A stretch of DNA of 64,000 nt from an uncultured Ruficoccus sp. (GCA_965140785.1 OZ223481.1:96001-160000), one strand, 5' to 3'. Counted from the stretch's first letter, positions 43,029 to 61,418 are shown. The notes: generated by a model from the letters alone, not told the origin. Numbers and translations are program-made.

Positions 43029-44396
43029 CTAGCGTTCGCCGCCCTGGCCGATGCCGTAGGCCTCGAAGCCGATTTCACGCAGCTGAGACAGTGCGAGGAT
43101 ATTGCGGCCGTCGAAGACGAAGGCGGGCTTGAGCATTTCCTGGTAAATCCGCCCCCAGTCCAGCCCCTTGAAGCTGTCCCACTCGGTCAGGATGGCCACG
43201 GCGTGCGCGCCACGGATGGCTGCGTACGGATCGGTGCAGATATCCACGCGCTCATCGTCCTCGCCTAGTCCCAAATCGCGCTGAATCGTGGCCGGATCGA
43301 CCTTGGGGTCGTAAATGGCGAGGTTCGCCTGCTCTTCCAAGAGGTCGCGGCAGACGCTGATGGCAGGCGATTCGCGGGTGTCGTTGGTGTCCTTCTTGAA
43401 GGCAAAGCCGAGGATGGCGATTTTCTTGCCCGAGACGGTATTGAACAGCGTGCTCACCATGCGGTCCACGAAGCGGCGCTTCTGGTGGTCGTTCATGGTT
43501 ACGACCTGCTCCCAGTACTTGGCCACTTCCGGCAGGCCGAAGTGTTCACACAGGTACACCAGGTTCAAAATATCCTTCTGGAAGCACGAGCCGCCGAAAC
43601 CGACCGAGCTGCGCAGGAATTTTGGGCCGATGCGCGAATCCCGCCCGATGGCGTGGGCGACCTCGTCCACGTTGGCGCCAGTGGCCTCGCAGAGGGCCGA
43701 AATGGCGTTGATGGAGGAAATGCGCTGGGCCAGAAAGGCGTTGGCGGTCAGCTTGGACAGCTCCGAGGACCAGACATTCGTCGTGAGAATGCGCTCGCGC
43801 GGCACCCAGCGGGCGTAAACCTCCACCAGCGCCTGCACGGCCTTGTCCCCCTCGGCGGACTCCTCACCGCCGATCAGCACACGGTCGGGCGCGGTCAGGT
43901 CCTCGACGGCGGTCCCTTCGGCCAGAAACTCGGGATTGGAGATGACCTGGAAGTTCAGGTCCTTGCCCGAACCGGCCAGGATACGCCGGATGGACTCGGC
44001 GGTGCGCACCGGCAGGGTCGATTTCTCCACCACAATCTTGTCCGACTCGGCCACCTCGGCGATGCGCCGGGCGCACAGCTCGATGTATTTCAGGTCGGCG
44101 GCGCGGCCCGCGCCCACCCCGTAGGTCTTGGTCGGCGTGTTGACCGACATGAAAATCATATCCGCCTCGCGGATAGCCTGATCCACCTCGGTGCTGAAAA
44201 ACAGGTTCCGCCCGCGGGCCTCCTTGACCACCTCGTCCAGGCCCGGCTCGAACACCGGCAGCTTGTCCGAGTTCCAGGCGTCGATACGCGCCTGGTTAAT
44301 GTCAACAACCGTGACCGGAATGTCCGGGCACTGCTTGGCAATCATGGCCATGGTGGGTCCGCCCACATAACCGGCTCCGATGCAGCAAATCTTCAT
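43029..44396 (-). CDS. ugd: UDP-glucose 6-dehydrogenase
   Basis: [42 protein letters not shown]; start moved to ATG 44396. Confidence 0.95.
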
Positions 44397-44538
44397 AACA
44401 CTTGGGTTTTTCGCAATTGGGGGAAAAGTGCGATGCTCCCCATATCGCCCAAATTGACAATCCTTTAATCCGCCCGGACGGGTGACACCTCCGTTACGAT
44501 GCCCGTCGTCGATAAGTAGGCCCTCGTGTCGTGTTAGC

Positions 44539-44705
44539 CTAGGCCGCGTGGACAAAATACGGAACGAGCAACCGAAGGCGATTTTTGGTCCGAAATTCAG
44601 GCTTCGAAGCGAGGCAATTTGCCGAATTGTCGAGCTGAGGACATGGATTTGGGGCCTAAAAGCGCCAAAGGGGGCGACATGAGCTATTTTGTCCACGTGG
44701 CCTAG
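44539..44705. repeat. ~167-bp long-hairpin element, family R2, copy B
   Basis: 21-bp terminal inverted repeat CTAGGCCGCGTGGACAAAATA with one mismatch; internal motifs shared with copy C. Confidence 0.85.
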
Positions 44706-44725
44706 TTCCTGATAAAATGCGAATG

Positions 44726-44810
44726 GCCACAAAAGGCACAAATCCGGAACTGGCCTCTCTAGATTCGCGCCTTATCCTGATTTTTTGTGAGTTTTGTGCC
44801 TTTTTGTGGC
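44726..44810. repeat. Inverted-repeat element, family R1, copy 3
   Basis: GCCACAAAAGGCACAAA ... TTTTGTGAGTTTTGTGCCTTTTTGTGGC. Confidence 0.85.
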
Positions 44811-44884: not shown

Positions 44885-45718
44885 ATGCCACCCGTGCCGG
44901 ACACGCCCGACATCTCCGTCATCATCCTCACGCTCAACGAGGAGCGCGACCTGCCCGGCTGTCTGGAATCCCTGACCTGGTGCGACGATGTCCATGTGCT
45001 CGACTCGGGTAGCACTGACCGCACCGCGGAGCTGGCCACCGCCGCCGGGGCCACCGTCGCCGTCAACCCTTTCCAGTCCTTCGGCCAGCAGCGCAACTGG
45101 GCGCTCGACCACTGCCCGCTTAAACACGGCTGGGTGCTCTTTCTCGACGCCGACGAGCGCGTCACTCCGGCCATGCTGGCGGAACTGACCGAGAAGACCG
45201 CCCATGCTCCCGACACCATCGCCGGGTATTACTGCTGCTGGGCTCTCATGCTGGGTGAACGCTGGCTCAAGCGCGCCGACAATTTCCCCAAATGGCAATT
45301 CCGCCTGCTGCGGCGGGGCCGGGCGCGCTTCACGGACTTCGGCCACGGCCAGAAGGAGGACCAGGTGGAGGGCGAGATCGGCTATATCAAAGAGCCCTAC
45401 CTGCACTACGCTTTCGGCGGCGGCTGGGAGGTCTGGCAAAAGCGCCACCGCAAATACGCCAAACAGGAAGCCGCCGCCCGGCTGGCCTCCGATGTGCCGC
45501 TCTCCCGCATCTTTTCCCGCCACGCCTCGCAGCGTAACCCCGCCATCAAGCGACTCGTCAGCCGCCTGCCCGGCTGGCCGCTGTTCCGTTTTTCCTACAC
45601 CTATGTCCTGCGCGGCGGCTTCCTCGAAGGCCGCGAAGCCTGGGAGTATTGCCGCCGCTTGGCCTGGTACGAAGCCCTCATCCAACATGAGATGCGGCAA
45701 GTCAGGCACCATTCTTGA
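44885..45718 (+). CDS. Glycosyltransferase family 2 (beta-1,4-glucosyltransferase-like)
   Basis: SVIILTLNEE, LDSGSTD, QRNWAL, FLDADE, GFLEG. Confidence 0.9.
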   Translation: MPPVPDTPDISVIILTLNEERDLPGCLESLTWCDDVHVLDSGSTDRTAELATAAGATVAVNPFQSFGQQRNWALDHCPLKHGWVLFLDADERVTPAMLAELTEKTAHAPDTIAGYYCCWALMLGERWLKRADNFPKWQFRLLRRGRARFTDFGHGQKEDQVEGEIGYIKEPYLHYAFGGGWEVWQKRHRKYAKQEAAARLASDVPLSRIFSRHASQRNPAIKRLVSRLPGWPLFRFSYTYVLRGGFLEGREAWEYCRRLAWYEALIQHEMRQVRHHS

Positions 45719-46276: not shown

Positions 46277-46302
46277 GCCCCCAATTCTTTTCCGCTCATT
46301 TC

Positions 46303-47283
46303 ATGGACAAGTCCCAGCCTATCCTCGTCACCGGCGCCGCCGGATTCATCGGCAGCAAAACCGCCGAACTCCTGCTTGAAGCCGGACACACCGTCGTTGG
46401 CATCGACAATCTCAATGACTACTATGATGTGCGCGTCAAGCAGCACCGGCTCGACCAACTCAAGGGGCGGGAAGGCTTTACCTTTGAGCCGACCGATATC
46501 GAGGACCTGCCCGCCCTGGAGAAACTCTTTGCAGTACACCGCTTCGTCGCCGTCATCAACCTGGCAGCCCGCGCCGGGGTTCGGTACAGCATGGAGAACC
46601 CGCACGTCTACATGACGACCAACGCCCACGGCACCCTCAACCTGCTGGAGTGCATGAAGGACCACGGGGTGAAAAAATTCGTCCTGGCCTCGACCTCCTC
46701 ACTCTACGCGGGCCAGCCCATGCCCTTTGTCGAGACGCTACCGGTCAATACGCCGATCTCCCCCTACGCCGCCTCTAAAAAAGCCGCCGAAACCATGGCC
46801 TACACCTACCATCACCTCTATGGTATCGACGTGACCGTGCTTCGCTATTTCACGGTCTTCGGTCCGGCGGGCCGCCCGGACATGTCCATCCTGCGCTTTA
46901 TCAAGTGGATCGACGAAGGCACCCCGATCGAGCTTTTTGGTGACGGCTCCCAAAGCCGCGACTTCACCTACGTGGACGATATCGCCCGCGGCACCATCGC
47001 CGCGCTCAAGCCCCTCGGCTACGAGATTATTAACCTCGGCGGCGGCAACAACCCCATCTCGATCAACGCCATGATCGAATGTTTCGAGCAGCACCTGGGC
47101 AAAAAAGCCACCATCGACCACAAGCCCTTCCACAAGGCCGACATGAAGGAAACCTGGGCCAATATCGACAAAGCCAAATCCCTCCTCGGCTGGACCCCCA
47201 AAATCGACCCCTTCGAAGGCTTCCGCCGCAGCGTCGAGTGGCACCGTGAGAACCGCGAGTGGGTAAGCGATATTCAGCTATGA
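46303..47283 (+). CDS. NAD-dependent epimerase (UDP-glucuronate 4-epimerase-like)
   Basis: TGAAGFIG, LAARAGVRYS, YAASK, FTVFGPAGRPDM, RDFTYVDD. Confidence 0.88.
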   Translation: MDKSQPILVTGAAGFIGSKTAELLLEAGHTVVGIDNLNDYYDVRVKQHRLDQLKGREGFTFEPTDIEDLPALEKLFAVHRFVAVINLAARAGVRYSMENPHVYMTTNAHGTLNLLECMKDHGVKKFVLASTSSLYAGQPMPFVETLPVNTPISPYAASKKAAETMAYTYHHLYGIDVTVLRYFTVFGPAGRPDMSILRFIKWIDEGTPIELFGDGSQSRDFTYVDDIARGTIAALKPLGYEIINLGGGNNPISINAMIECFEQHLGKKATIDHKPFHKADMKETWANIDKAKSLLGWTPKIDPFEGFRRSVEWHRENREWVSDIQL

Positions 47284-48086
47284 GTGAGCGAAGCAACATT
47301 TTCAGTCTGCCGAAGCGGGCTCTGAATCGCCTGACACGCGATAGCCAACTTCTATTCGCACGACTTGAACATAAAATCCGGCCTGAAAAGGCTTGCCACA
47401 TTGCCATCTGTGGCTTTCCCCGCGCCGGCACCTCCGTGCTCTTCAACATGCTCGCCTCGACCATGAAGGGTTTCAATAACCTGGGCCGGGAGACTGGCGC
47501 ACTTGCTGTGTTGAACCGTAGGGGTAACTGGATCACCAAGCAGCCCAACGATATATTTCATATCGGCAAAATCGCGGCCCAAAATTTCAGGGCTAAGAAA
47601 GTTCTGGTCATCGCCCTGTACCGGGATCCTAGCGACTCCATTACCTCCGTACACAGACTGCTGCCCGACGATTACTACATGGGCTACGATAAGAGAGGAT
47701 TCGACCAGTGCGGACTGGGGGAAATCTACAATGCCTACAAAAAGGCGATCGACCATCCCCCCGCCGGAGTCGACTTCCTCACTTTCTCTTACGAAGAACT
47801 CTGTGGAGCCCCGTCACGCCTGCAGGCGGAAATAACCCGTCGACTACAGGCCGAGTTCAGCGCCGACATGAAGGATTTCTATAAGTCTGGCGGTCAGATG
47901 GCCTATAAGTCCGGCGAAAGAGCCGAAAAGATCGCCGCCGGTCCCCTCGTCAAAGAACGACTCGGGAAATGGAAAAAGCCCGAGCGCATCCGCTCTCAGT
48001 TCACCCAGTTCCCCGAACTCTTCGCCATGGTAGAGGAGCTGGGCTACGAAAAAGACAGGGACTGGTTCGACACCTACCGTACCTGA
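47280..48086 (+). CDS. Sulfotransferase-family protein
   Basis: 5'-PSB-like GFPRAGTS, 3'-PB-like YRDPSDSITS, SYEEL, LGKWK, LGY. Confidence 0.72.
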   Translation: MSERSNIFSLPKRALNRLTRDSQLLFARLEHKIRPEKACHIAICGFPRAGTSVLFNMLASTMKGFNNLGRETGALAVLNRRGNWITKQPNDIFHIGKIAAQNFRAKKVLVIALYRDPSDSITSVHRLLPDDYYMGYDKRGFDQCGLGEIYNAYKKAIDHPPAGVDFLTFSYEELCGAPSRLQAEITRRLQAEFSADMKDFYKSGGQMAYKSGERAEKIAAGPLVKERLGKWKKPERIRSQFTQFPELFAMVEELGYEKDRDWFDTYRT

Positions 48087-48123
48087 TCCTCTCCAGTATT
48101 TTTCGCCTAAAACTATACGACGT

Positions 48124-48539
48124 ATGTTACTTAAAAAAAATTCCCGCCGACTCAAGCGGTTGCTCTTCCCCCGGAAACGTAACGGTGAAGGCCCTCCCGC
48201 CTCCTACCGATCCGTCCAACTGACAACTGAAGGCATTAACGCCGGTGATTATAAAAAGTATCTCGGCGGGGGAGCCGGGCAGTGGGATCAGCGCGGGCAA
48301 TTTCAGTTGGACCTGCTGCGCTCCATAGGTCTCACCCCCACCTCGAAGCTGGCAGACATCGGCTGCGGGCCGCTGCGCGCCGGCCGTTTCTTCATCGAAT
48401 ACCTGGAAGCGGACGGTTACTTCGGCTTCGACTACAACGTCAGCTTCATTGAGGCAGGCAGGGCGATCATCGACGAGCAGGGACTGGTTAACAAGCGGCC
48501 AACCCGCTGCCCATCCTCCTTTTGAAAAAGAACAGCTGA
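48124..48539 (+). pseudogene. Truncated class I SAM-dependent methyltransferase
   Basis: Motif I LADIGCGPLR and YFGFD are present, but the ORF stops at 133 aa (48525) and there is no room for the rest of the fold before murA. Confidence 0.65.
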
Positions 48540-48567
48540 GGCAGCGACACCTAAAAATCTCCGCACC

Positions 48568-49866
48568 ATGAAAAACAAAATCGATCTCTCTGTCATAGGC
48601 GGGCAAGTGCCCTCAGGGGCTGTACCAGTCAGTGGAGCCAAAAATGCGGCAACCCGTCTCATGGCGGCAGGGCTTTTGACCAATGAGCCCGTTATCCTGT
48701 CGAATTTTCCCACCGAGTTGGTAGACGTCGCCCAGAAGGCCCGTTTCATGCGCGCCATCGGCGCCGAATTGGACTTCGACCGCCAGCGCAGTGTACTCAC
48801 CGTCAACGCCCGGGGGACGCAGGACGCTCCCCCCGCAGACTTCGACTTTCCCATCCGTACCACGTACCTTCTGCCTGTCGGTCAATTGGTCCGCTATGGC
48901 CATGCACATATTCCTTACCCCGGTGGATGCAAGCTGGGTGAGCGTAAATACGACCTGCATCTGGAAGTGTGGCGCCAGCTCGGCTGCGATGTCGTCGAGC
49001 GTGAAGATCACATTGAAATAACCGCACGCTCGGGCTCACTGGTCGGCAACGAAATCAACTTCCCCATTACAACGGTCGGGGGCACCGAGAATGCCTTGCT
49101 GTGCGGAGCTGTGGCCCAGGGGACCACAGTCGTCCACAACGCCTATGTGACCCCGGAAGTTTATAACCTGATCGAGCTCCTGCGGCTGATGGGAGCCCAG
49201 ATCCAAATTCAGGGCAGCAGCATGATCACCATCGAAGGTGCCGGTGGGTGCCTGCACGGAGCGACCATTGACGTGATCCCCGACCGCATCGAAGCCCTCA
49301 CCTGGATTATCTACGCCGCCCTGTCCAAAGGCGATATCCTGATCGAGAATGTCCCCTTCGACCTGATGGAAATTCCCCTTCAGCACTTGCGGGCCGCAGG
49401 GCTCGATTACTTCAGCAACAGCCGTTCCGTTTACATCTCCCCGAACTGCTTCAGCACGCACTTCGTGCAGCCGTTCGAGCTGGCTTGCGGCACCCACCCG
49501 GGCATCATTTCGGACATGCAGCCGTTCTACGTGCTGCTGGCCATGTTTGGCGCCGGTAAGAGCCTGATCGTGGACTATCGCTACCCCAAGCGGGTCGCTT
49601 TCCTCGACGAGTTGCTCAAGTTCGCCCCGGGCTCGCTGGAGTGGAAGAGTGAAGATGCCGCCATGATCCGCGTCAACGGACCCGTCCCACTGCGCGGTGC
49701 ACAGGTCAAGTCCACCGACCTGCGCGGCAGCATGACGCTCGTCATGGCCGGACTTCTGGCCCAGGGCAAGAGCATCATCCACGACGTCGGGATGGCCCTG
49801 CGTGGCTACAATCTGATGGAACAGAAGCTCCGATCCCTCGGCATCGAATTCGAGATCTCGGAATAA
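48568..49866 (+). CDS. murA: UDP-GlcNAc 1-carboxyvinyltransferase (MurA) homolog inside a polysaccharide operon
   Basis: GAKNAA, PGGCKLGER (active-site Cys loop), PDRIEA, SDMQP, TDLRG, RGY. Confidence 0.88.
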   Translation: MKNKIDLSVIGGQVPSGAVPVSGAKNAATRLMAAGLLTNEPVILSNFPTELVDVAQKARFMRAIGAELDFDRQRSVLTVNARGTQDAPPADFDFPIRTTYLLPVGQLVRYGHAHIPYPGGCKLGERKYDLHLEVWRQLGCDVVEREDHIEITARSGSLVGNEINFPITTVGGTENALLCGAVAQGTTVVHNAYVTPEVYNLIELLRLMGAQIQIQGSSMITIEGAGGCLHGATIDVIPDRIEALTWIIYAALSKGDILIENVPFDLMEIPLQHLRAAGLDYFSNSRSVYISPNCFSTHFVQPFELACGTHPGIISDMQPFYVLLAMFGAGKSLIVDYRYPKRVAFLDELLKFAPGSLEWKSEDAAMIRVNGPVPLRGAQVKSTDLRGSMTLVMAGLLAQGKSIIHDVGMALRGYNLMEQKLRSLGIEFEISE

Positions 49867-49876
49867 AAACGCGTCC

Positions 49877-50806
49877 ATGCTCGTTCTCCAACAGCAGTTT
49901 CCGAATGCGGTACGGTTTGACGAACCGCTTGCCCCCTACTCCTGGTGGCGTATCGGAGGCAAGGCCGACGCCCTGATCGAGATTCAAAGCGAGGAGCAAC
50001 TGGCCCATGTGCTCAAGAGCCTCCAATCACACAAGCTCGCCTGGTGCCTCATTGGACGAGGCACCAACCTGCTTTTTGACGATGCGGGCTTCCGGGGTTG
50101 CGTGCTGCGGCTGGGCAATGGTTTATCCGACATGAGCTTCGAGGACGACCGACTCACCGCCCAGGCCGGCTGCTGGACGCCCGGCGTGGCCTTGACCTGC
50201 GCCCGCCGCGGGCTTTCCGGAATCGAGCACACCATCGGCATTCCCGCCTCCTTCGGGGGTCTGATCTGCATGAATGGCGGCAGCCAGCGCAAAGGAATCG
50301 GCGACATCACCGAAAGCGTGACCACCCTTGATCCGGAGGGAAACCGCCACACCTACAGCCGAGAGGACTGCGCGTTTTCATACCGTCACAGCCGTTTTCA
50401 AGACAGCGGCGAGATCGTCGTCAGCGCAACCCTCCGGTTCCCAGCCCATCGCCCCTACACGGAACAACGTCCGGAACTGCTCTCCATCCTGCGCGAGCGC
50501 AATCGCAAATTCCCCCGCAAACTCCCAAGCTGCGGCTCGGTTTTCAAGAGCTCCCCGGAACTTTTTTCCGCCTACGGCCCTCCCGGAAAAATCATTGAGG
50601 ACATGGGCTTTAAGGGGAAAACCTGTGGAAACATACAAGTCTCTCCCCGCCATGCCAATTTCATCGTCAACAAGGGCGGCGGCTCTTCCGCTGACGTCCT
50701 GGCACTGGTCAATGAAATCCGTGCAAGCGTCAGGGACAAAACCGGGCTGACCATGCACCCGGAATTCCGCTACGTCCACCCGACGCACGGCATCATCGAA
50801 ATCTGA
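49877..50806 (+). CDS. murB: UDP-N-acetylenolpyruvylglucosamine reductase (MurB) homolog
   Basis: IGGKAD, GRGTNLL, GIPASFGG..MNGG, YRHS, PSCGSVFK, HANFIVN, PEF. Confidence 0.88.
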   Translation: MLVLQQQFPNAVRFDEPLAPYSWWRIGGKADALIEIQSEEQLAHVLKSLQSHKLAWCLIGRGTNLLFDDAGFRGCVLRLGNGLSDMSFEDDRLTAQAGCWTPGVALTCARRGLSGIEHTIGIPASFGGLICMNGGSQRKGIGDITESVTTLDPEGNRHTYSREDCAFSYRHSRFQDSGEIVVSATLRFPAHRPYTEQRPELLSILRERNRKFPRKLPSCGSVFKSSPELFSAYGPPGKIIEDMGFKGKTCGNIQVSPRHANFIVNKGGGSSADVLALVNEIRASVRDKTGLTMHPEFRYVHPTHGIIEI

Positions 50807-50810
50807 TCGC

Positions 50811-52250
50811 ATGAAACGTCTGATTCACAGACTTTGGCACTCGCCGACCTTTACCTCATGGTCCAACCGGGCCGCGCAATCGGTTCGCCTGATCGTGCTG
50901 CTGCCCCTCATCCTGAAGGATTTCGACGACACTCAGGTGGCCTGCTGGTTTCTATTCAGCTCCATTCTCTTTTTCGGGCAAGTCATCAGCCAGCAAACCG
51001 CCCTGACGATGGCCCGCATGACAGCAATGGCCAACGGCGGCCTGAGTGACCTCTCCCCACACACCGGGAAAGCCCGCGACACAACCGGCCAGCCCAATTG
51101 GCCCCTGATCGAGCGCCTCTACGGCACACTGCAATCCCTCAATGCTATTCTCGCTGTCACCGGCCTGCTGCTGGCTATTGCCATGGGATATTATTCGCTT
51201 GAGCCCATGCTTAGCGATTACTCGGGAGCGAGCGACATCTGGTGCGCCTTCGCGATCCTCATGGGCGGGTATTTCATCAACGAGCTTTTTCGCAAGTTCG
51301 AAGTTACCCTCAAAGGGCTAAACCAGGTCGCCCTCACCAATCGCTGGAACGCCCTCTTCTCCGTACTCTCCTCGTGCAGTGGTGCTCTCGTCCTGCTGGC
51401 GGGCGGCTCCATCGTCGAGCTCGCCATCGCCATGCAGGCATTCATCCTGTTGAGTATCCTGCGCCAATGGGGGCTGCTCATGTTTCTGGTCCAGCCACGC
51501 TTCCGCGCCTTTAAAGTCTGGGCCTGGCATCAAGAAATTGTCAAATGGGCGTGGACTCCTTTATGGCGCGGCACGGTCCAGGCCCTGGCCAACCGCGGCG
51601 GCGCCCGGGTCGGAGCCGTTGTCCTCGCCCGCCATTGCGAGCCGGTCACCCTGGCCAGCATCCTTCTGGCCATACGCATCCTCGATGCGCTCGAAGACGT
51701 CAGCACCACCCCCATCGCCAGCCATTCACCGCGCTTTGGCCGGCTGTTGGGGGAAGGCAAAATCGACAAATTCCGCAAAGGCATGGATCGGGCGTTTCGC
51801 CTGTCATGCTCTGTCCATGTCACTGGGGTGGTCATGGTCGGATTTCTGGGCGGAATCGGGCTGCGGCTCCTTGGCTCCGATACAAAGTTCATCCCCATGA
51901 CCCTGTTCTTCAGCCTGGCAATCGCCCAGACACTCTTTTCCGTCGTTCGCAAGAGCCTGATGATATCAATGGTCGGCAACAACGTCGTCGTAGTCGAACG
52001 CTACTTGGCAGCTGCTCTGGCCAGTATCCTCCTCGCCTTCTGGCTCATCCCGCTGGACCCCTTCTGGGGCCTTCTTGCCAGCAGCTACCTCCCCGCCATC
52101 GTCATTGTAAACATCAAACCCCTCCAAATCGGCTGCCAGACGCTTCAGGAGCCCATATCGTTGTTCGTCAGGCGCACGATACTTGCCCCCCTGAGCGTGC
52201 TGCTGCTAGCCTCCGGGCTGGCGCTGGTGCTGAGTTATACGCGCCCTTGA
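50811..52250 (+). CDS. Wzx-like polysaccharide flippase
   Basis: 479 aa with about 12-14 hydrophobic segments; located among glycosyltransferases. Confidence 0.65.
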   Translation: MKRLIHRLWHSPTFTSWSNRAAQSVRLIVLLPLILKDFDDTQVACWFLFSSILFFGQVISQQTALTMARMTAMANGGLSDLSPHTGKARDTTGQPNWPLIERLYGTLQSLNAILAVTGLLLAIAMGYYSLEPMLSDYSGASDIWCAFAILMGGYFINELFRKFEVTLKGLNQVALTNRWNALFSVLSSCSGALVLLAGGSIVELAIAMQAFILLSILRQWGLLMFLVQPRFRAFKVWAWHQEIVKWAWTPLWRGTVQALANRGGARVGAVVLARHCEPVTLASILLAIRILDALEDVSTTPIASHSPRFGRLLGEGKIDKFRKGMDRAFRLSCSVHVTGVVMVGFLGGIGLRLLGSDTKFIPMTLFFSLAIAQTLFSVVRKSLMISMVGNNVVVVERYLAAALASILLAFWLIPLDPFWGLLASSYLPAIVIVNIKPLQIGCQTLQEPISLFVRRTILAPLSVLLLASGLALVLSYTRP

Positions 52251-52270
52251 GTACAACCCGAATCGATTCC

Positions 52271-53440
52271 ATGAAAATCCTGTACCTGATCAGCTGCCTG
52301 CGAGGAATGAACTCCGGCGTCGGCGGACATAACTACTCGCTCATTACTATCGCAACGGCAATGGCCCGTTCGAACACAGTGAAAGTCGTACTCAACCACG
52401 ACATGGAATGCCCCGCCTTCAACACCTACCAGGGAACGCTCCTACACATCAGCCACCAGAGCCTGCGCGACGACATCAAGTCCCTGGTCGCGATCATCAG
52501 AGAAGAAAAACCGGACGCACTGCATTCCTTTGACCGAATATCCCATTGCATAGCAAAGGCAGCCAGTGCCCAAACCCAAACCCCGCTTGTCATCACCAAG
52601 CCCGGAGACATTCTCCCTCGCTATACCTATCCTCACGCCTACGACGTGACCGTGTTTACCCAGGCAGATGTCGATTTCTTCAAAAACCACCCATACTTCC
52701 GAAACGCACGCATTTCGAATATTCCAAACCGAACGACAAAACCGATCGTGAACGAAAAGCGTCTTTTAGCCCTCCAACCGTATGTCAAAGAGGGAGCGTT
52801 CAAGATCATGTTCATTTCGACCTTCAACAATAGAAAATTCAATACACACACAAAGTGTATTGAATTGATCAAACGCTTGAACCTGGAGGGTTTCAAAGCC
52901 CAAGGCATTTTTATCGGTAACATTAACGAACAAAGCGTCTATGATAAACTGCTCGCCAGCGCCGGAGAAAACTGCACCCTGCTTACCTCTGAGGAGTTCT
53001 TTGATAACGCTTCGGAATTTCTGGCCGGTGCGGATGCTGCGGTCACGATGGGGCGAAGCACTCAAGAGGCAGCCGCCTATGGAAAACCCATTTTATGCTG
53101 TGCCCATAACCTCGACATCCCATATCTCCTTAACGATTCGAATTTCGAGCACACAGCCTCTCATAACTTTACAAACCGTACTACCGTCGACATGAGCGGA
53201 TATGACGCCCTTGCCTCTATTTCTTCTCTCATTACCTCTCCGCAAGCCTACACCCAAGCCTGCGAATTCTCCAAACGCCAATTCGCCAAGTACTGGGATG
53301 TTGAAATGGCAGTTCCGAAATACTGTAATCTTTACGCTTCAGCACGCCCCGCGTGCAACCTCCCTCTGGAAAAATACCTACAGGCAACAGTTAAGCTACT
53401 TTACGATAAAGGGCGTAAGCTCTTCTCTAAATCTAGCTGA
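52271..53440 (+). CDS. GT-B glycosyltransferase
   Basis: MKILYLIS...GGH, KPDALHSF, ADAAVTMGRSTQEAAAYGKP; real start is ATG 52271, inside ORF 51545..53440. Confidence 0.78.
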   Translation: MKILYLISCLRGMNSGVGGHNYSLITIATAMARSNTVKVVLNHDMECPAFNTYQGTLLHISHQSLRDDIKSLVAIIREEKPDALHSFDRISHCIAKAASAQTQTPLVITKPGDILPRYTYPHAYDVTVFTQADVDFFKNHPYFRNARISNIPNRTTKPIVNEKRLLALQPYVKEGAFKIMFISTFNNRKFNTHTKCIELIKRLNLEGFKAQGIFIGNINEQSVYDKLLASAGENCTLLTSEEFFDNASEFLAGADAAVTMGRSTQEAAAYGKPILCCAHNLDIPYLLNDSNFEHTASHNFTNRTTVDMSGYDALASISSLITSPQAYTQACEFSKRQFAKYWDVEMAVPKYCNLYASARPACNLPLEKYLQATVKLLYDKGRKLFSKSS

Positions 53441-53481: not shown

Positions 53482-54084
53482 ATGGCCAGCACTAATCTCA
53501 GGGAATCCATCAGAGCAGATTTGCTGCGCTACCGCAAAAACACCGGCTGGAAGGCTTTCGGGTATGCCTACATCGTCTACCCCGGCTTTCGTGTCACATT
53601 CTGGTATCGGCTTGTCCATTATTGCCATCGCTCTCCGAAATGGCGGATATTCTCCAAAATCGGCACACTCTGGCTACTGCACCAACAGCACCGCACTGGG
53701 ATAGAGCTCAGCCATCAAACAGAGATAGGCCCGGGCGTCTATATCCCCCATGCTGGAGCAATTGTGATTAACGGGAAGTGTAAGATCGGCAGCAATCTCT
53801 ACCTCTCCCACGATGTGCTGCTTGGCAAAGCCCATGCCGGCCCCCGGCAAGGGGTGCCCACCGTCGGGGATGACGTTTATCTTGGGCCGGGTGCACGGCT
53901 ACTGGGTAAACTCCATGTGGGAGACAATGCCGCCATCGGGGCAAATGCAGTCGTTTTAAACGACATTCCTTCCGACAGCTTCGCCGTGGGCGCTCCGGCC
54001 AAAGTCGTTAAAAATACCGGAGCCCGGGGGTTACTCGGAATCGCAGAAGAACAGGCCACAGTCCAAACACCGACCAAGGGCTAA
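53482..54084 (+). CDS. Hexapeptide-repeat O-acetyltransferase (CysE/WcaB-like)
   Basis: IGPGVYIPH, PTVGDDVYLGPGA, IGANAVV, VGAPAK. Confidence 0.88.
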   Translation: MASTNLRESIRADLLRYRKNTGWKAFGYAYIVYPGFRVTFWYRLVHYCHRSPKWRIFSKIGTLWLLHQQHRTGIELSHQTEIGPGVYIPHAGAIVINGKCKIGSNLYLSHDVLLGKAHAGPRQGVPTVGDDVYLGPGARLLGKLHVGDNAAIGANAVVLNDIPSDSFAVGAPAKVVKNTGARGLLGIAEEQATVQTPTKG

Positions 54085-54129
54085 TTGACCCCTGCGGTCC
54101 TCATCGCAACTTCACCTTTCAGCCCATTC

Positions 54130-55506
54130 ATGAAATTAATCCCCTTTCCCTCGGAAAATAACGGAAGACTGCTACAGAAAGTGGCCTACTGGGTCCTGGT
54201 CGGCATGGCTATCGTCTCGCCATTAGGCCAGCTTACCCGATTCGGCCAATTCACGGGCGAAGGTGATGGCCAGGCCATGGGCGCTGTTACCATCCTGACC
54301 ATTTTGTACATCGGGCTTTCTATTATTAACGGCAGCATTATGGCTGCCATAAAAAAAACACCCCGCCGCCCTGCTCCTCTTCTGCTTCGCAGGATGGAGT
54401 TGCCTGGCAACCCTGGTGCAGGGGCTTCCGGTCATGTACGGGGTATACCCGGCCGCCCGCATGGTCAGTTATTATCTGGTCATGCTTGCCGTCTTCGGAA
54501 GCTTTTACTCCGAGCGTCAATTGCGATCGTCGCCCTGACGTTTTGTTTCTTCATGTCGATATGCTGTGTCATCAGTCTGGCCGACTATTTTGAATACATA
54601 AATCTAGAGCAGGTTAATGTCGTCGAGAATGCCTTCAAGACGGATGACATGAGAAACCTGAGAGTGGACAGCCTAACGGGGCCATTCTCCAGTCGGACAA
54701 TCTTCGCCAACCACATGGCCATAACCGTTACGATTGCAGTCTGGTATGTGCTGTTGAAAGGGAAGTCGATCATAGGCCTGAGTGCAGGCGTTGAGATGCT
54801 CGGCATTTTTGCGATCAGTGCCGTCATGTCCCAATCTCGAGGCCTGTATATGGCGATTCCGGTCGCTGTTTTATATATGGTGTATAAGCAGCGCAGCTTC
54901 TTGAGACTCATGCCAAAATTGCTCCTCGCTTCAGTCATATTCATAGCCGCAGCTACAGTTGTATTGTTAAATCATCCTGATTTGATGTTCGCGTTCGTGG
55001 AGCGCTTAAAAGGCCTCCTGCCATCGGAGTTCGCCTATAGCTCCTCAGGGCGATTCTCCATTTGGTCCAACCTCTTTAAGGAGCTTATGTCAAATCCGCA
55101 GGGGATTGGTTTTAAAGACGTCTATGTTGCAAACTGGGGGGTGATCGACACGCACAATGTCTATCTCAAAAACCTCAAACAGGCAGGCATCATCGGCATC
55201 GTCATGCTGACGATAGCATTCATCCCCTTGTTCAAGGTGTTATTTCGCCGAGAAATGGCTCCAACCGAGTCCGCCATCCAATCGGCTATCGTATGCTTGG
55301 GCATTTATGGACTGACGCATACCGTGGACTCCACCCTCTTTCTGTGGGTTTTCATTGGATTCGCACTGAGCCATTATTTCCGGCCGGTCAATCCCATGCA
55401 GATGCAGCCTAATCCACAGCCCCAGTTTCATCCCCACCCCCACTGGCCCGCCCCGCCCCATCGTCCACAACGGGCTCCCTTCCCCCCCACCGGACCTGCA
55501 CGGTAA
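54130..55506 (+). CDS. Wzy-like polysaccharide polymerase with an internal out-of-frame segment
   Basis: Multiple TMs, SQSRG, RFSIW, HNVYL...GIIG; 54359-54520 reads as TM helices only in the +1 frame. Confidence 0.75.
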   Translation: MKLIPFPSENNGRLLQKVAYWVLVGMAIVSPLGQLTRFGQFTGEGDGQAMGAVTILTILYIGLSIINGSIMAAIKKTPRRPAPLLLRRMELPGNPGAGASGHVRGIPGRPHGQLLSGHACRLRKLLLRASIAIVALTFCFFMSICCVISLADYFEYINLEQVNVVENAFKTDDMRNLRVDSLTGPFSSRTIFANHMAITVTIAVWYVLLKGKSIIGLSAGVEMLGIFAISAVMSQSRGLYMAIPVAVLYMVYKQRSFLRLMPKLLLASVIFIAAATVVLLNHPDLMFAFVERLKGLLPSEFAYSSSGRFSIWSNLFKELMSNPQGIGFKDVYVANWGVIDTHNVYLKNLKQAGIIGIVMLTIAFIPLFKVLFRREMAPTESAIQSAIVCLGIYGLTHTVDSTLFLWVFIGFALSHYFRPVNPMQMQPNPQPQFHPHPHWPAPPHRPQRAPFPPTGPAR

Positions 55507-55585: not shown

Positions 55586-56755
55586 ATGAAAAGACTGGCA
55601 AAGATTGTGGTAGTCGGTTTCGGCTCCATCGAAAAAGATAACGATGGCAACTGGCAGACGAAACAACCTATTGCCGAGTATATTAACGGCTTGGCCGAGG
55701 GAGCCGAAGAGGTCGTTTGGTTCATTAACCACAATCGGCTTAAAAACCAAAACCAACAGGCTACGATCAATTCTGACAAAATTCGCGTCAGGGCATATAA
55801 ATACAGCACCTGGAGCTGGTTCCGCATGATGCCTGGCGTGCTAAAAGAGAGCAAAGGTGCCGGTGTGATCCTGCACATGCCAACATCGACACACCTCTAT
55901 CCGTTATACAAGCTCATCAAAAGACGTTCGGTCGCGCTGGCAGTCTACATCGGGGACGACTATGAGGCGTACTGCAAAACCGGGACCGGCCTCACAGCCC
56001 TCAAGCGGCGGATGATACTGATGGCCCACCGCACATTGGTCAGTATCGCTGATCTGGTTGTGGCCAGAGGTAAGCACCTGGCATCGGTCGCGATGGAGCG
56101 CAACCGTAATGTCATTGAGACTGTGCCGCTCGCGCACATGCCGACTGAAGTCCAAACCAAGCCGCTTCCCACGGCGGGTGAACCTTTCAATATCCTCTGC
56201 GTAAGCAAGCTCGCCTGGTGCAAAGGCTTTAAAGAGTTCATCGACGCCTACGACCAGCTCGTACAGGAGGGACGGCACAAGCTTGGCAAACTGTACATCG
56301 TCGGAGACGACCTCGGAGGCAACAATATCGAGGGGGACGCCATCAGGGAATATGCCCGCACTAAAGCATGCTGTGATCACATCGTCTTTACCGGTTATTT
56401 GTACCTCGCGAGCGAACTGGAAAAGTACTGGCAGGCGTGCCCCCTGCTGGTGATGCCGACCTCCTCCCACAATGAAGGTGTCCCGCGCGTGATCGACGAA
56501 GCCCTAAGCCGCGGCCTGGGGATTGTCTCGACAACCATCGGTGGGGTGGGAGCCGAGTTCGCATCCAGCCCCGTCGTACTGGTGAAACCCGCCGATACCG
56601 GAGCGCTCCGCACCGGCATCGAACAGGTGCTCGATCACCCGGAAACGCTGGCCGACATTTCCGCCTATGCGAAAAGTCGCTTCGAGTTTTTCCAGCAGCA
56701 AGGCTCGCCCGGCAAGCAGCACTACCAAGCCCTTTCACAATGTATCAGAAAATAA
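55586..56755 (+). CDS. Glycosyltransferase family 4
   Basis: KGF, FTGY, EGVPRVIDEA, TTIGG. Confidence 0.85.
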   Translation: MKRLAKIVVVGFGSIEKDNDGNWQTKQPIAEYINGLAEGAEEVVWFINHNRLKNQNQQATINSDKIRVRAYKYSTWSWFRMMPGVLKESKGAGVILHMPTSTHLYPLYKLIKRRSVALAVYIGDDYEAYCKTGTGLTALKRRMILMAHRTLVSIADLVVARGKHLASVAMERNRNVIETVPLAHMPTEVQTKPLPTAGEPFNILCVSKLAWCKGFKEFIDAYDQLVQEGRHKLGKLYIVGDDLGGNNIEGDAIREYARTKACCDHIVFTGYLYLASELEKYWQACPLLVMPTSSHNEGVPRVIDEALSRGLGIVSTTIGGVGAEFASSPVVLVKPADTGALRTGIEQVLDHPETLADISAYAKSRFEFFQQQGSPGKQHYQALSQCIRK

Positions 56756-56863: not shown

Positions 56864-57658
56864 ATGAAGACTGTCCAGAAATTGATCCAACATCCGGCAT
56901 GGACAGCCAAGAAGCTTTATCTCCATGGTCGATCCTTTTTGAACCTGAACAAAGATGACATCATACTGGCCGTTTTCCCGAAAACGGGCAGTACCTGGGT
57001 TCGGTTCTTCCTCTTCAATCTACTCTCGAGCGTCGAACAGCGCCAGGGCGAGATCAGCATCGACGAGATGAACCGTTTGATGCCCGAGATGGGGCACCCC
57101 TCCTTGTTTCGCGACTGGCCCTTTCGCTCGTGTCCACGCATCGTCAAAAACCACCATGCGGCCAATTTTATGACGCGCGGTCATCGTGTGATACTGATCC
57201 TGCGCGACCCCCGCGACGTCGTCGTGTCTTATTACCACTATGTCAATGGCGGCAAAAATGCTCCCGCTCAGGCCCAGACAATCAAGGACATCATCTACGA
57301 TCCGGAAAAAGGATTCGAAGGCTTTTTCAGGCAGTACTATTCCTGGCCGGAACAAGACCGTTTCTTACTGCGGTACGAAGACCTCAAAGCCGACCCTTTT
57401 GCCGAGTTCAGTCGCCTGGTGCATCACCTGAATATTCCGGCCAGCGAGGGGCAAATCCGGCAAGCTATCGCCAGTGCGGATTTTTCAGCCATGCGCAAAG
57501 CTCAGCAGCAAAGTAAATCCATGCGGGAGAGCTTCTCCGAGGGTTTCAATTTTGTCCGGTCCGGCGGCAGCGGTGAATGGAAAAACCTTTTCGAGGCCAA
57601 GGACATCGCCTATTGGGAGTCACTGAAAAATAAATACAATTTCAAGCTATATCCATGA
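56864..57658 (+). CDS. Sulfotransferase (Sulfotransfer_1-like)
   Basis: FPKTGSTW, LRDPRDVVVSYY, RYEDL, FVRSGGSGEWK. Confidence 0.9.
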   Translation: MKTVQKLIQHPAWTAKKLYLHGRSFLNLNKDDIILAVFPKTGSTWVRFFLFNLLSSVEQRQGEISIDEMNRLMPEMGHPSLFRDWPFRSCPRIVKNHHAANFMTRGHRVILILRDPRDVVVSYYHYVNGGKNAPAQAQTIKDIIYDPEKGFEGFFRQYYSWPEQDRFLLRYEDLKADPFAEFSRLVHHLNIPASEGQIRQAIASADFSAMRKAQQQSKSMRESFSEGFNFVRSGGSGEWKNLFEAKDIAYWESLKNKYNFKLYP

Positions 57659-58894: not shown

Positions 58895-59088
58895 GCGGCG
58901 TTAAAAATGAAAAATGTATCCAAATTTTAATGACTGCCAGACTTTCACCTGGAGAAATACCGGCAAGAACACTGAAACGTAACATGTGGAGCCGCTTTTA
59001 GCTTTTCAGTCATCCGCCCCCAGCTACTATCAACGCCCGAATCATTTCCTAATTGCTGTCCGAGAGGGTCAGCCCGTCAGAGATCACA

Positions 59089-60261
59089 ATGGCCTCAGAT
59101 GTAAATAGTCATAACTCATCCGGCAACACCCTACGTATCTTGCTACATGGTCATTTAGGGCAAGGCAACCTCGGCGACGAAGCCATGTTGGCCGGTGTTT
59201 ACCAACTGCTTATAAAGAATATACCCGATATTCGCGTAAGCGTCATCGCCGGGCCCCATTCCCGGCTGGATTTCCTGCCCCCGGAGACAGTTTCCGTCCT
59301 TCCACGCACGCAGCGAGAACTTATGCGTGGAATTGCCTCAACGGACATCCTCATGATTGTCGGCGGCACGCATCTGGCCTCCTTCAAAAGCGATTTTCGT
59401 CACACCAAAGCCATCCTTCGCCAAGGTATGATTTTGGCCTACGCCCGGCTGCTTGGCAAAAAAGTCTTCATGGCCGGGGTTGGCATAGGCCCCTTTGAAA
59501 CCCGCTCCGGGGAAATGATGGCCGCCTGCGTGGCTCGCCTGTGCAACGCCATCACCGTCCGGGATGAGCGCTCCCTCTCCTGGCTGGCCTCCAGGAAAGC
59601 GCTCCACGCACGGGCCAGTAAATGCGTCGATCCGGCTTTCGCGCTAAACATCCCGTCCGCCTCGAAAACGGGTGACGCCCTGGGCATTTCGCTGATGCCC
59701 TACTTCGCCAACTATCACCCCGGCAGTGGCAAGGACCGGGAAATCGTCAGCCGCATGGTTGAACTCGCCTCCGCATGGTGGAAGCAAAAGCCCGCCGCGC
59801 CCGTCGTTCTTTTTCCGTTCCTGGAACAGCGCAGCATCTACTCCGACAGCGAAGTCATCACGCCTCTTTACGAGCAGTTGGCCCCACTCGGCCCGGTCCG
59901 CATTCACGACGCCAGCCAGAGGCTGGAAGAGCGCATTCGGGGCATCGGTGCCTGCACACATTTTATTTCTTTTCGCTATCATGCCATGCTCTTCGCCTTC
60001 ATGGCGGGCGTACCGCAGTTGGCCGTCGCCTACCATGATAAAAACCGCACCCTTGCCGGCGAATCGGGGCTGCCCGCCAAGGCGGTTTTTTCCGTCGATG
60101 ATTTACTAGCGGGAAAATTATCCGGCCCGGCAGAGGATTTCTTCTCCTCCCCCACGCAATGGGCGAGCACGGTTGATCCGTCGTTTTTTCAGGATCAGGC
60201 AGAAAATATCATCACCGGGCAGATGTACCAGACGATGCGCGGAAAGGCCCAACCAAAATGA
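59089..60261 (+). CDS. Polysaccharide pyruvyl transferase family protein (CsaB/WcaK-like)
   Basis: GHLGQGNLGDEAM, VGGT, GVGIGP, ITVRDERS, DPAF, RYHA, YHDK. Confidence 0.88.
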   Translation: MASDVNSHNSSGNTLRILLHGHLGQGNLGDEAMLAGVYQLLIKNIPDIRVSVIAGPHSRLDFLPPETVSVLPRTQRELMRGIASTDILMIVGGTHLASFKSDFRHTKAILRQGMILAYARLLGKKVFMAGVGIGPFETRSGEMMAACVARLCNAITVRDERSLSWLASRKALHARASKCVDPAFALNIPSASKTGDALGISLMPYFANYHPGSGKDREIVSRMVELASAWWKQKPAAPVVLFPFLEQRSIYSDSEVITPLYEQLAPLGPVRIHDASQRLEERIRGIGACTHFISFRYHAMLFAFMAGVPQLAVAYHDKNRTLAGESGLPAKAVFSVDDLLAGKLSGPAEDFFSSPTQWASTVDPSFFQDQAENIITGQMYQTMRGKAQPK

Positions 60262-61418
60262 AACTTCTCCACGTCATCCATGACAACCGTATCAGCGGAG
60301 TCGCCATGCGGGCCCTGACCGTAGCACCGCAGTTGCGGGCACAGGGCATCGAACCGATCTTCGTCGTGCCGGACGAGGCCGGCTCTGTCGATGAGAAGTG
60401 CCGCGAACTGGGGCTGCCAGTGCACCGTGCCTACATGCCACGTCCGACATTGAAGGCCCGTCACCTGCTGCGGGTGTTGGTGTGGCTGGTCGGGCTGCCC
60501 CGTACCGCGCTACAGTTGCGTCGCCTCATTCACCGCGAGCGTGCGGACTGCCTCCATGTCAACGGTCTGGTCAACGTCGGCCCCTGGCTGGCCGCCTGGC
60601 TCACCCGCAAGCCCATCGTCTGGCACCTGTGCGGGACCGACTACCCAAAGGCCCTGGTGCGGATATTGATTCCGCTCATCCGCCGCCGCAGCGAGATCAT
60701 TTACATTTCTCCCCAGGTCGGAAATTACTTCCTGGGAACAGGTGGCCGAAACTCTAACGAACACCTGCTCTTTGAGCCGGTGGACCTGGCGGTACTGGAG
60801 CGGCGAATGCGTCAGTCCGCCCCAGAAAGCCTGCGCGAGATTATTGGCGACAATGACAACGCCCCGGTCTGCCTCACCGTCGGCAACCTTTCACCCCGCA
60901 AGGGAGCCCACTACCTGATCGAGGCCATCGCGCTCATGAAGGATGCGGGACTGCGAATGAAGCTCGCCGTGGTGGGCGAGTCCCTGAGCGTCCATCTGGA
61001 CTACGAGCGCCAATTGCACCAGCGTATTCAGGAGCTCGGATTGACCGAACAGGTGTTTTTCCTCGGCCGACGGGACGATGTTCCTGCGCTCATGCAGCAA
61101 GCCGATGTCTTTGCCCTCGCCTCGAACTCGGAGGGCACTCCGCTGGTCATCATGGAGGCAATGGCCTTGTATCTTCCCGTTGTCGCCACCGCCGTCGGGG
61201 GCGTCCCAGATATGATTACTGACAATGAAAATGGTCTTCTGGTGGACAAGGGGAGTCCGACCCAGCTTCAGGCTGCGCTGAGTCGTCTGGTACAAGAATC
61301 CGGCTTGCGCGAACGCCTGACCCAAAAGGCCCGGCGCACCACAGAGGAGAAGTTCTCGCTCTCCACCCATGTCAAAGGCTTTGCAGCCATCATAAAAAGG
61401 GCAGCGACCGAAACCTGA
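60258..61418 (+). CDS. Glycosyltransferase family 4
   Basis: VGNLSPRKG, FLGRRDDV, EGTPLVIMEAMA, TAVGG. Confidence 0.92.
   Translation: MKLLHVIHDNRISGVAMRALTVAPQLRAQGIEPIFVVPDEAGSVDEKCRELGLPVHRAYMPRPTLKARHLLRVLVWLVGLPRTALQLRRLIHRERADCLHVNGLVNVGPWLAAWLTRKPIVWHLCGTDYPKALVRILIPLIRRRSEIIYISPQVGNYFLGTGGRNSNEHLLFEPVDLAVLERRMRQSAPESLREIIGDNDNAPVCLTVGNLSPRKGAHYLIEAIALMKDAGLRMKLAVVGESLSVHLDYERQLHQRIQELGLTEQVFFLGRRDDVPALMQQADVFALASNSEGTPLVIMEAMALYLPVVATAVGGVPDMITDNENGLLVDKGSPTQLQAALSRLVQESGLRERLTQKARRTTEEKFSLSTHVKGFAAIIKRAATET

Follow-up and report, generated by a model that had tools for sequence, protein, structure and literature searches.

The 64,000-nucleotide stretch of DNA analysed here (the window; uncultured Ruficoccus sp., GCA_965140785.1 OZ223481.1:96001-160000) contains, within a surface polysaccharide gene cluster, two adjacent genes that encode paralogs of the peptidoglycan enzymes MurA and MurB. 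The pair is additional to the housekeeping copies of the same genome, belongs to a separate clade and is linked to polysaccharide genes; the catalytic and uridine diphosphate (UDP)-contact residues are kept, and the two enzymes alike show a remodelled acceptor pocket. We regard it as likely that the pair makes a lactyl-ether UDP-sugar, probably not UDP-N-acetylmuramic acid (UDP-MurNAc), as a donor for a sulfated, pyruvylated and acetylated polysaccharide of the Wzx/Wzy type (O-antigen or exopolysaccharide, EPS). As a part of this reading, the best explanation for the pair is that it is accessory, horizontally mobile and devoted to a polysaccharide, not to peptidoglycan. Coordinates are positions in the window and residue positions follow the numbering of Escherichia coli MurA and MurB, unless stated otherwise. 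The two genes are:

48568..49866, + strand, MurA-like enolpyruvyl (1-carboxyvinyl) transferase paralog, 432 amino acids (aa); PF00275, NF006873, MurA structures in the PDB and AlphaFold2 (AF2) fold
49877..50806, + strand, MurB-like enolpyruvyl-ether reductase paralog dependent on flavin adenine dinucleotide (FAD), 309 aa; FAD_binding_4 and MurB_C, NF010480 and MurB structures in the PDB

The homology of both proteins was established by means of Pfam and NCBIfam profile searches, sequence comparison with the PDB, and an AF2 model searched with Foldseek. The MurA paralog matches PF00275 (E-value 2.2e-46) and stands above the cut-off of NF006873, a MurA "subfamily" model (338.1 bits; cut-off 297), but misses that of the MurA equivalog TIGR01072 (332.9 bits; cut-off 392.7), on which the housekeeping copy of the same genome scores 537.3 bits. 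The MurB paralog contains the domains FAD_binding_4 (PF01565) and MurB_C (PF02873), and passes the MurB equivalog cut-offs of NF010480 (272.6 vs. 259 bits) and TIGR00179 (171.7 vs. 144.5 bits). Full-length matches in the PDB were MurA for the first protein (E-value 1e-61) and MurB for the second (E-value 3e-44). Regarding the MurA paralog, MurA sequences match at 212 bits and 30-32% identity, and NikO (PDB 4fqd) at 123 bits and 26% identity. Its AF2 model, computed from an input alignment of 25 sequences, has a predicted local distance difference test (pLDDT) score of 91.4 and a predicted template modelling (pTM) score of 0.90; the predicted fold is the two-domain EPSP-synthase/MurA fold, and the approximately 40 top Foldseek matches are MurA structures (template modelling score 0.85-0.90), with NikO at rank 43 and AroA lower. 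Strong full-length homologies rule out chance open reading frames (ORFs) or shadow frames, and a fosfomycin-resistance paralog is likewise ruled out, as the target Cys is retained.

An earlier note, made from the DNA sequence, had described murA and murB homologs 10 bp apart, with murB ending 4 bp before a flippase gene, and had listed a number of motifs in both proteins. Both ORFs and both gaps (10 nt between the paralogs; 4 nt from the end of the MurB paralog to the ORF at 50811) were recovered as described. The quoted MurA motifs (GAKN, PGGC, GER, DMQ, DLR and RGY) are all seen in the alignments or the residue map, and the MurB motifs occur as GRGTN, YRHS, GSVFK and HANF. The flanking differences that the note pointed out in MurA (RKYDLH for RPVDLH, TVGGT for SVGAT, YVTPE for AREPE, and RYPKR for VFENR) and placed on the substrate side are all present, and are clade-wide switches across 80 paralogs.

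In the genome from which the window derives (completeness, 90.85%), contig 12 carries a gene for a standard MurA (TIGR01072, 537 bits), which shares 32% identity with the paralog, and contig 48 (L004:202-2379) a gene for a 725-aa MurC-MurB fusion, located directly upstream of ddl and sharing 34% identity with the MurB paralog. As these housekeeping proteins share only 32-34% identity with those of the window, the pair is extra. In four other Verrucomicrobiota carriers, the housekeeping MurB lies in a long open frame (729-838 aa), which points to a MurC-MurB fusion there too. Among 60 relatives of the same order, only 2 have a close copy of the MurA paralog (70-71% identity) and one more a copy with 40% identity; a MurA match at about 30-37% identity was found in 57 of the 60. 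In 26 of 26 carrier genomes, which belong to many phyla, there are at least two MurA-family matches and exactly two MurB_C matches, of which the first adjoins the paralog and the second is located in another part of the genome.

A protein search with the MurA paralog retrieved more than 120 proteins with 54-70% identity from Verrucomicrobiota, Cyanobacteria, Planctomycetota and Proteobacteria, and the database name of every clade protein among the matches listed is "UDP-N-acetylglucosamine 1-carboxyvinyltransferase". A scan of one genome per species yielded 107 relatives, 80 of which were retained; these also cover Bacteroidota, Actinomycetota, Campylobacterota and one metagenome-assembled genome (MAG) of Sumerlaeota, and the clade is present in at least seven phyla. 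Further members are found in Providencia alcalifaciens, P. manganoxydans, Moellerella wisconsensis, Aeromonas caviae and several Vibrio species; the O-antigens of Providencia are rich in lactyl ethers.

The MurA tree (117 rows; IQ-TREE quick search, LG+G4 model) omits L095, which is short, and L099 and L116, which have stops inside the high-scoring segment pair (HSP). A branch of length 0.73, with a Shimodaira-Hasegawa-like approximate likelihood ratio test (SH-aLRT) support of 100, splits 33 housekeeping-type rows from 84 others, namely the 80 paralogs, three duplicates (L122, L124 and L125) and the 40% copy as their sister. This last gene, from a genome of the same genus as the window (L007, G002), represents a third type of MurA-like gene; it has Y122 and R327, and lacks Y186. 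The 33 housekeeping-type rows follow taxonomy. The paralog clade mixes Verrucomicrobiota, Cyanobacteria, Proteobacteria, Bacteroidota and Actinomycetota: for instance, a Verrucomicrobiota MAG stands beside a cyanobacterial MAG, Polaribacter falls inside Alteromonadaceae, and Actinomycetota lie among Alphaproteobacteria. Such a patchy spread and mixture of phyla look like horizontal transfer. In the MurB tree (92 rows, same type of search; 16 rows left out, 9 for lack of a match and 7 because the HSP was short or interrupted), the cluster-linked proteins fall into: (i) a group of 50 rows, including the window protein, with an SH-aLRT of 100; (ii) a group of 5 rows from Cerasicoccus maritimus, another Verrucomicrobiota genome and cyanobacteria (support, 99); (iii) a group of 10 Bacteroidota rows (support, 99); and (iv) one more row alone on a long branch. 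No cluster-linked MurB group nests in the housekeeping MurB clade of its own taxon.

Linkage between both genes is conserved. A MurB-like gene lies within 500 bp and on the same strand in 63 of the 80 MurA-paralog loci, within 2.1 kb in 7 more and about 9 kb away in 1, which amounts to 71 loci with a MurB-like partner. In five Bacteroidota loci, one gene is placed between the two paralogs (the flippase, in L041). Twelve loci were picked across phyla for Pfam annotation of their neighbourhoods: glycosyltransferases were found in all 12, all of them being polysaccharide clusters, and a Wzx-type gene in 9, in most of which it adjoins the pair. Two cyanobacterial loci have an ATP-binding cassette (ABC) transporter in place of the Wzx-type gene, and one Flavobacteriaceae locus looks like a lipopolysaccharide (LPS)-core cluster. 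In L020, L023 and L071, which comprise the two cyanobacterial loci and one from Saprospiraceae, the transporter beside the pair consists of ABC_membrane and ABC_tran, and replaces the Wzx-type flippase. In Salinimicrobium sp. (L033, 5851-15937), the genes around the pair encode a GT9 heptosyltransferase, a Kdo/WaaP-type kinase, a Stealth protein and a pyruvyl transferase; this context resembles an LPS core and recalls the lactyl-mannose of the Odoribacter lipooligosaccharide (LOS) core described in PMC12679510.

The earlier note had proposed that these genes are repurposed paralogs in a polysaccharide operon, and had seen no murC-F, ddl or division and cell wall (dcw) genes nearby. It had named, as results that would speak against this, a pair that is the only copy in the genome or that groups with vertically inherited orthologs, and had asked whether the clade remains linked to wzx, wzy and glycosyltransferase genes. 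The search of the genome, the MurA tree and the neighbourhoods described above support its proposal: the pair is not the sole copy, its MurA forms a separate clade of mixed phyla, and polysaccharide genes accompany it. A Pfam scan of 50 window ORFs (17 + 33) gave no match to a Mur ligase, ddl or any other dcw gene.

These same data bear on the possibility that the proteins are redundant or conditional peptidoglycan paralogs, like the Gram-positive MurA1/MurA2, which happen to lie in the cluster by chance. Second peptidoglycan MurA copies do occur in Firmicutes (PDB entries named MurA1 and MURA2-MURA1) and the catalytic residues of the pair are intact; nevertheless, linkage to polysaccharide genes is kept across phyla (63/80 and 12/12), the duplication comprises both steps, the patchy distribution looks like the outcome of horizontal transfer, murC-F and ddl are not nearby and, as shown next, the pocket is remodelled. 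Hence, we attach hardly any probability to it.

The active site of the MurA paralog contains, in its own numbering, the catalytic residues K25, C121, R126, D316 and R412. When 80 paralogs were compared with 33 housekeeping MurAs, K22, N23, R91, R120, D305, R371 and R397 were found in all 80 paralogs and C115 in 79; the fosfomycin-target Cys at position 115 is replaced by Asp in that one paralog and in 6 of the 33 housekeeping MurAs. The UDP contacts D123, L124, S/T162, V163 and G164 are kept as well. Relative to the UDP-N-acetylglucosamine (UDP-GlcNAc) contacts of structure 1UAE, taken from Table 1 of PMC13750019, 9 of the 11 listed are kept in the window protein, the exceptions being V327, which is Arg (in 80/80 paralogs), and K160, which is Ile and varies in housekeeping MurAs too. 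Altogether, 32 positions are clade-specific (the same residue in at least 95% of the clade, but seldom in housekeeping MurAs), many of them adjoining contact residues; the switches beside contacts are A92T, S93T, I94Y, V122Y, A186Y, P303I, T304S, E325D, T326Y and V327R. Position 186 is Tyr in 80 of 80 paralogs and Ala in 33 of 33 housekeeping MurAs; in a smaller set of paralogs, E188 is Thr or Ser (25/25).

As for the MurB paralog, R170, S221 and E296 align with R159, S229 and E325 of the E. coli enzyme, which we take to be the catalytic residues. In a comparison of 66 cluster-linked with 27 housekeeping MurBs, these three residues are present in 66, 66 and 65 of the 66 cluster-linked proteins, respectively. 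Only two columns of the whole alignment, N233 and L268, have a residue that at least 90% of the housekeeping MurBs share and that is almost never seen in cluster-linked ones. N233, in the GSxFKN motif, is Asn in 27/27 housekeeping MurBs and in 0/66 cluster-linked MurBs, where it is replaced by Ser in the large group (50/50; Ser225 in the window protein), by Ser or Ala in the group of 5, by Arg in the Bacteroidota group (10/10) and by Ser in the single row. In Pseudomonas aeruginosa MurB, Asn-243 forms a hydrogen bond with the adenosine phosphoribose of NADP+ in a channel shared by NADP(H) and the sugar nucleotide (PMC3689657); this Asn was equated with E. coli N233 by the Ser-239/Ser229 offset. 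Since the equivalent of N233 lines this shared channel, its change would affect the channel of the substrate or the cofactor.

These residues also weigh on another explanation, i.e., that the pair makes a dedicated pool of ordinary UDP-MurNAc from UDP-GlcNAc and a glycosyltransferase of the cluster then puts MurNAc in the polysaccharide. Consistent with it, the 1UAE contacts N23, R91, R120, D123, L124, S/T162, V163, G164 and D305 are retained, the MurB paralog scores above the MurB equivalog cut-offs, and lactyl groups are found on GlcNAc in E. coli O69 and O150 (PMC7685785). A second pool alone, however, would need no remodelling of both enzymes, whereas the housekeeping-invariant residues A186 of MurA (33/33) and N233 of MurB (27/27) are replaced clade-wide, together with 31 more MurA positions, and the MurA paralog falls under the MurA equivalog cut-off; on balance, this explanation appears unlikely.

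A further alternative concerns the acceptor. That of the MurA paralog might be a lipid-linked repeat unit, another nucleotide (as in NikO) or a non-sugar, and the product might be something other than a simple lactyl ether, perhaps an enolpyruvyl ether left unreduced where MurB is missing. The MurA fold can actually take uridine monophosphate (UMP) as acceptor, as NikO does, and 9 of the 80 loci have no MurB-like gene; downstream of the MurA paralog, one of these (L061) carries a nitroreductase-family gene and two a 406-aa protein. By contrast, the UDP-diphosphate and uridine contacts are kept in 80/80 paralogs, NikO is far more distant than MurA (123 vs. 212 bits) and a MurB-like partner accompanies the gene in 71 of the 80 loci; this explanation thus seems very improbable, less so only than that of redundant peptidoglycan paralogs. 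In the MurB-less loci concerned, the gene for the nitroreductase-family flavoprotein (L061:11286-12317) lies directly downstream of the MurA paralog, and so does that for the 406-aa protein with no Pfam match (L077 and L085:11253-12473). Either of them may be a non-orthologous replacement of the reductase.

In the window, the pair belongs to a co-directional block of genes on the + strand (44885-61418) with short gaps between genes. The other features of the cluster are the following:

43029..44741, - strand, divergent from the cluster, UDP-glucose/GDP-mannose dehydrogenase (Ugd-type); three UDPG_MGDP_dh domains, matching from residue 116 on, with the true start probably internal
44885..45718, + strand, GT2 glycosyltransferase, first gene of the co-directional block; Glycos_transf_2, 51.8 bits
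46222..47283, + strand, NAD-dependent sugar-nucleotide 4-epimerase, probably of the UDP-glucuronate 4-epimerase type; Epimerase, 209.7 bits
47259..48086, + strand, sulfotransferase-like; Sulfotransfer_3, 32.1 bits
48124..48525, + strand, short ORF of 133 aa, apparently a truncated methyltransferase-like gene; no Pfam match of its own
50811..52250, + strand, Wzx-like O-unit flippase candidate, 479 aa; NF041503, 93.4 bits, below the cut-off of 300, and no Pfam match
52271..53440, + strand, GT4-type glycosyltransferase; weak Glyco_transf_4 match, C-terminal part of ORF 51545-53440
53482..54084, + strand, hexapeptide-repeat O-acetyltransferase (EpsC/CysE-like); PF00132, and NF041874 at 129 bits, below the cut-off of 150
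54085..55506, + strand, Wzy-type polymerase candidate; Wzy_C, 38.7 bits, above the cut-off of 31.7, and 7 hydrophobic segments
55586..56755, + strand, GT4 glycosyltransferase; Glycos_transf_1 / Glyco_trans_1_4
56864..57658, + strand, sulfotransferase; Sulfotransfer_1, 102.9 bits
57755..58894, + strand, GT4 glycosyltransferase; Pfam
59053..60261, + strand, ketal-type polysaccharide pyruvyl transferase (CsaB/WcaK family); PS_pyruv_trans, 96.2 bits, and TIGR03609, 110.7 bits, below cut-off
60258..61418, + strand, GT4 glycosyltransferase; Glycos_transf_1, 147 bits

The cluster thus encodes one GT2 and four or five GT4 glycosyltransferases; the start of the GT4 gene at 52271..53440 is uncertain (TTG 52247, ATG 52271 or ATG 52307). 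The top PDB matches of the epimerase are 5u4q, 6zl6 and MoeE5 6kv9, the last two presumably being UDP-glucuronate 4-epimerases. The flippase candidate shows 10 hydrophobic segments in a crude hydropathy scan and has homologs at the equivalent position in L016 (46% identity), L018 (37%) and L021 (32%). In view of its gene content, the polymer would be a decorated heteropolysaccharide bearing sulfate, pyruvate ketal and acetyl groups.

Upstream of the cluster, there are genes for heptose (PfkB kinase, SIS_2) and for Kdo (KdsA and KdsD types), beside which a second Wzy_C/WaaL-type gene is located (39649-41220). Farther upstream, genes for a PglF-type dehydratase, a DegT aminotransferase, a UDP-glucose pyrophosphorylase and a phosphoglucomutase are found. 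An initiating transferase of the WecA/MraY family (Glycos_transf_4, 135 bits) is encoded at 27894-29069, about 16 kb upstream and outside the block. No match to Poly_export, Wzz or GNVR was obtained among the window ORFs scanned, Wza and Wzc having been searched for in the window only. An O-antigen is possible, because WaaL-type and Kdo/heptose genes lie just upstream; the polymer may be either an O-antigen or an EPS/capsule.

Several additional observations concern this region. In Cerasicoccus maritimus (L017), the place of the 133-aa ORF at 48124..48525 is taken by a 237-aa ORF, whose first 130 residues share 61% identity with the shorter one; in the closest relative (L016), a Methyltransf_11 gene stands there. 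Since the C-terminal half is missing in the window, the 133-aa ORF is a probable gene remnant. Its product contains a DIGCG stretch, which we take to resemble the S-adenosylmethionine-binding motif of class I methyltransferases. From the two sulfotransferase genes, a sulfated polysaccharide is predicted for this Verrucomicrobiota genome; when both window proteins were used as queries, only 3 of 80 other loci had sulfotransferase homologs near the pair. The G+C content is 0.52-0.55 across 52000-58000 (0.531 for 52271-58894) vs. 0.597 in the whole window, and 0.59-0.60 in the genes of the MurA and MurB paralogs; a lowered G+C content is common in the cores of exchanged polysaccharide clusters. 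Finally, seven consecutive ORFs of 171-773 aa at 647-9545 have no Pfam match at an E-value of 1e-5.

A dedicated route to a lactyl-ether donor is the simplest reading of all of the above, because the chemistry and the grip on UDP are kept, the surroundings of the acceptor are re-tuned in both enzymes and in every lineage, and the genes are always in polysaccharide clusters. We infer, from the sequences, the reaction itself, a UDP-sugar as its acceptor, and a difference from the 3-hydroxyl of UDP-GlcNAc in sugar, position or stereochemistry. The proposed pathway would comprise four steps: (i) the MurA paralog would move the enolpyruvyl group of phosphoenolpyruvate (PEP) onto a hydroxyl of the UDP-sugar; (ii) the MurB paralog, using FAD and NAD(P)H, would reduce the resulting enol ether to a lactyl (1-carboxyethyl) ether; (iii) an adjacent glycosyltransferase would add the lactylated UDP-sugar to the undecaprenyl-linked repeat unit; and (iv) the adjacent Wzx would flip this unit, which Wzy would then polymerise. 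With sulfate, pyruvate ketals and O-acetyl groups also added to the repeat unit or the polymer, the result would be a strongly anionic surface polysaccharide.

Regarding the acceptor, a census of neighbouring genes in the 80 loci yielded Ugd in 27, UDP-glucuronate (UDP-GlcA) epimerase-like genes (UGlcAE-like) in 16, ManC in 6 and WecG in 16. In 31 of the 80 loci, Ugd or a UDP-GlcA-epimerase-like gene is found at a distance of up to 10 kb, and both are present in the window. Since none of these genes occurs in all loci and the census had no control set, it gives only a weak hint on the acceptor. A uronic acid is one attractive possibility, because Ugd and UDP-GlcA-epimerase-like genes flank the pair, such genes recur in those 31 loci and the pocket has a new invariant Arg. 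More tentatively, and with clearly less confidence than in the lactyl-ether donor itself, it is conceivable that the whole clade is a general module for ether-linked lactyl sugars other than MurNAc across phyla, in which the clade-invariant R338 of the window protein (for V327) and the new Tyr residues might fit the pocket to a different UDP-sugar, maybe a uronic acid, giving residues of the nosturonic-acid type. In that case, the pair would be a genomic marker from which lactylated glycans could be predicted by sequence alone.

Ether-linked lactic acid is a hallmark of muramic acid. In many bacteria, O-antigens, capsules, EPS and LOS cores also contain lactyl ethers, the sugars that bear them being glucose, mannose, rhamnose, GlcNAc and uronic acids. 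They have been reported in E. coli O58, O69, O124, O146 and O150 (PMC7685785) and in Cyanospira, Mycobacterium lacticolum, Salinivibrio, Odoribacter and Nostoc (PMC12679510). The clade occurs in the same groups as the lactyl sugars documented in these sources (Cyanobacteria, Mycobacterium, halophilic Gammaproteobacteria, Bacteroidota and E. coli). PMC12679510, a structural paper from 2025, leaves open the biosynthesis of such a lactyl-ether sugar. In E. coli O124 and Shigella dysenteriae type 3, according to PMC7685785, wfeP is ascribed to the synthesis of UDP-glucolactilic acid, a frameshift of wfeP in O164 removes the lactyl group, and the supplement labels wfeP as a pyruvyltransferase gene. 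The idea that a PEP-dependent enzyme encoded in the cluster lactylates a sugar nucleotide thus already exists, on account of wfeP. When the Vibrio furnissii pair was compared by blastn with 20,395 E. coli records, nothing matched, which is uninformative at about 50% protein identity. No paper linking MurA/MurB paralogs to lactyl-ether polysaccharides was found in the open literature; the subscription literature may already assign such genes.

A number of points weigh against a lactyl-ether donor other than UDP-MurNAc. Regarding the enzymes, UDP-GlcNAc is still a possible acceptor, because most of the listed contacts are unchanged; in NCBIfam, the MurB paralog still scores above the cut-offs of the MurB equivalogs; the part played by the switched residues is deduced only from their position in the sequence; and the loss of N233 may reflect a preference of cofactor, not of sugar, because this Asn contacts NADP+. 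Regarding distribution, a MurB-like gene was not found nearby in 9 of the 80 loci, two of which are without upstream sequence; both trees are quick LG+G4 searches that carry a long-branch-join warning; and support at the deep nodes of the MurB tree is only 79-81. Besides, lactyl ethers may also arise by another route, the lactyl sugar of E. coli O124 being ascribed to wfeP, labelled a pyruvyltransferase gene, and among the best 120 of 1190 matches there is no protein from Odoribacter, in which Man4Lac is proven, although this is not evidence of absence.

If the lactyl-ether donor reading is correct, the pair would provide (i) a gene basis for lactyl-ether glycan chemistry outside peptidoglycan; (ii) a means to predict lactylated glycans from genomes; (iii) a correction of the blanket annotation of the clade proteins as peptidoglycan MurA/MurB; and (iv) enzymes for making lactyl-ether sugar nucleotides. 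Surveys of essentiality or drug targets that count murA and murB copies would be affected, the fosfomycin-target Cys being kept in 79/80 paralogs.

Among known systems, WfeP resembles the pair in that, according to PMC7685785, its gene lies in a Wzx/Wzy O-antigen cluster, next to wzx, and is held responsible for a lactyl-ether UDP-sugar. NikO, the enolpyruvyl-UMP transferase of nikkomycin biosynthesis, is a MurA-fold enzyme recruited outside peptidoglycan with a changed acceptor, as proposed here, but is more distant from the MurA paralog of the window (26% identity) than MurA is (30-32%); to our knowledge, NikO has neither a MurB partner nor a polysaccharide context. The Gram-positive MurA1/MurA2 proteins (MurAA/MurAB, MurZ) also represent more than one MurA-family gene per genome. 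Such second MurAs act on UDP-GlcNAc for peptidoglycan and are not known to be paired with a second MurB or with wzx/wzy, whereas in the window both the MurA and the MurB steps are duplicated and polysaccharide-linked. Ketal pyruvyl transferases (PS_pyruv_trans: CsaB, WcaK and GumL), one of which is encoded at 59053-60261, place a PEP-derived three-carbon acid on surface glycans too; they have an unrelated fold, form a cyclic ketal instead of a lactyl ether and, in consequence, do not explain the MurA/MurB pair. The closest comparison is with housekeeping MurA (EC 2.5.1.7) and MurB (EC 1.3.1.98), which have the same folds, domains and catalytic, PEP-site and UDP-contact residues, and the same order of steps as that proposed for the pair (enolpyruvyl transfer, then flavin-dependent reduction). 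Unlike them, the pair in the window, with 32-34% identity to the housekeeping proteins of its own genome, belongs to a separate clade with 32 MurA positions and MurB Asn233 switched, and its genes are adjacent in a polysaccharide cluster, while those of housekeeping MurA and MurB are found in dcw or scattered loci.

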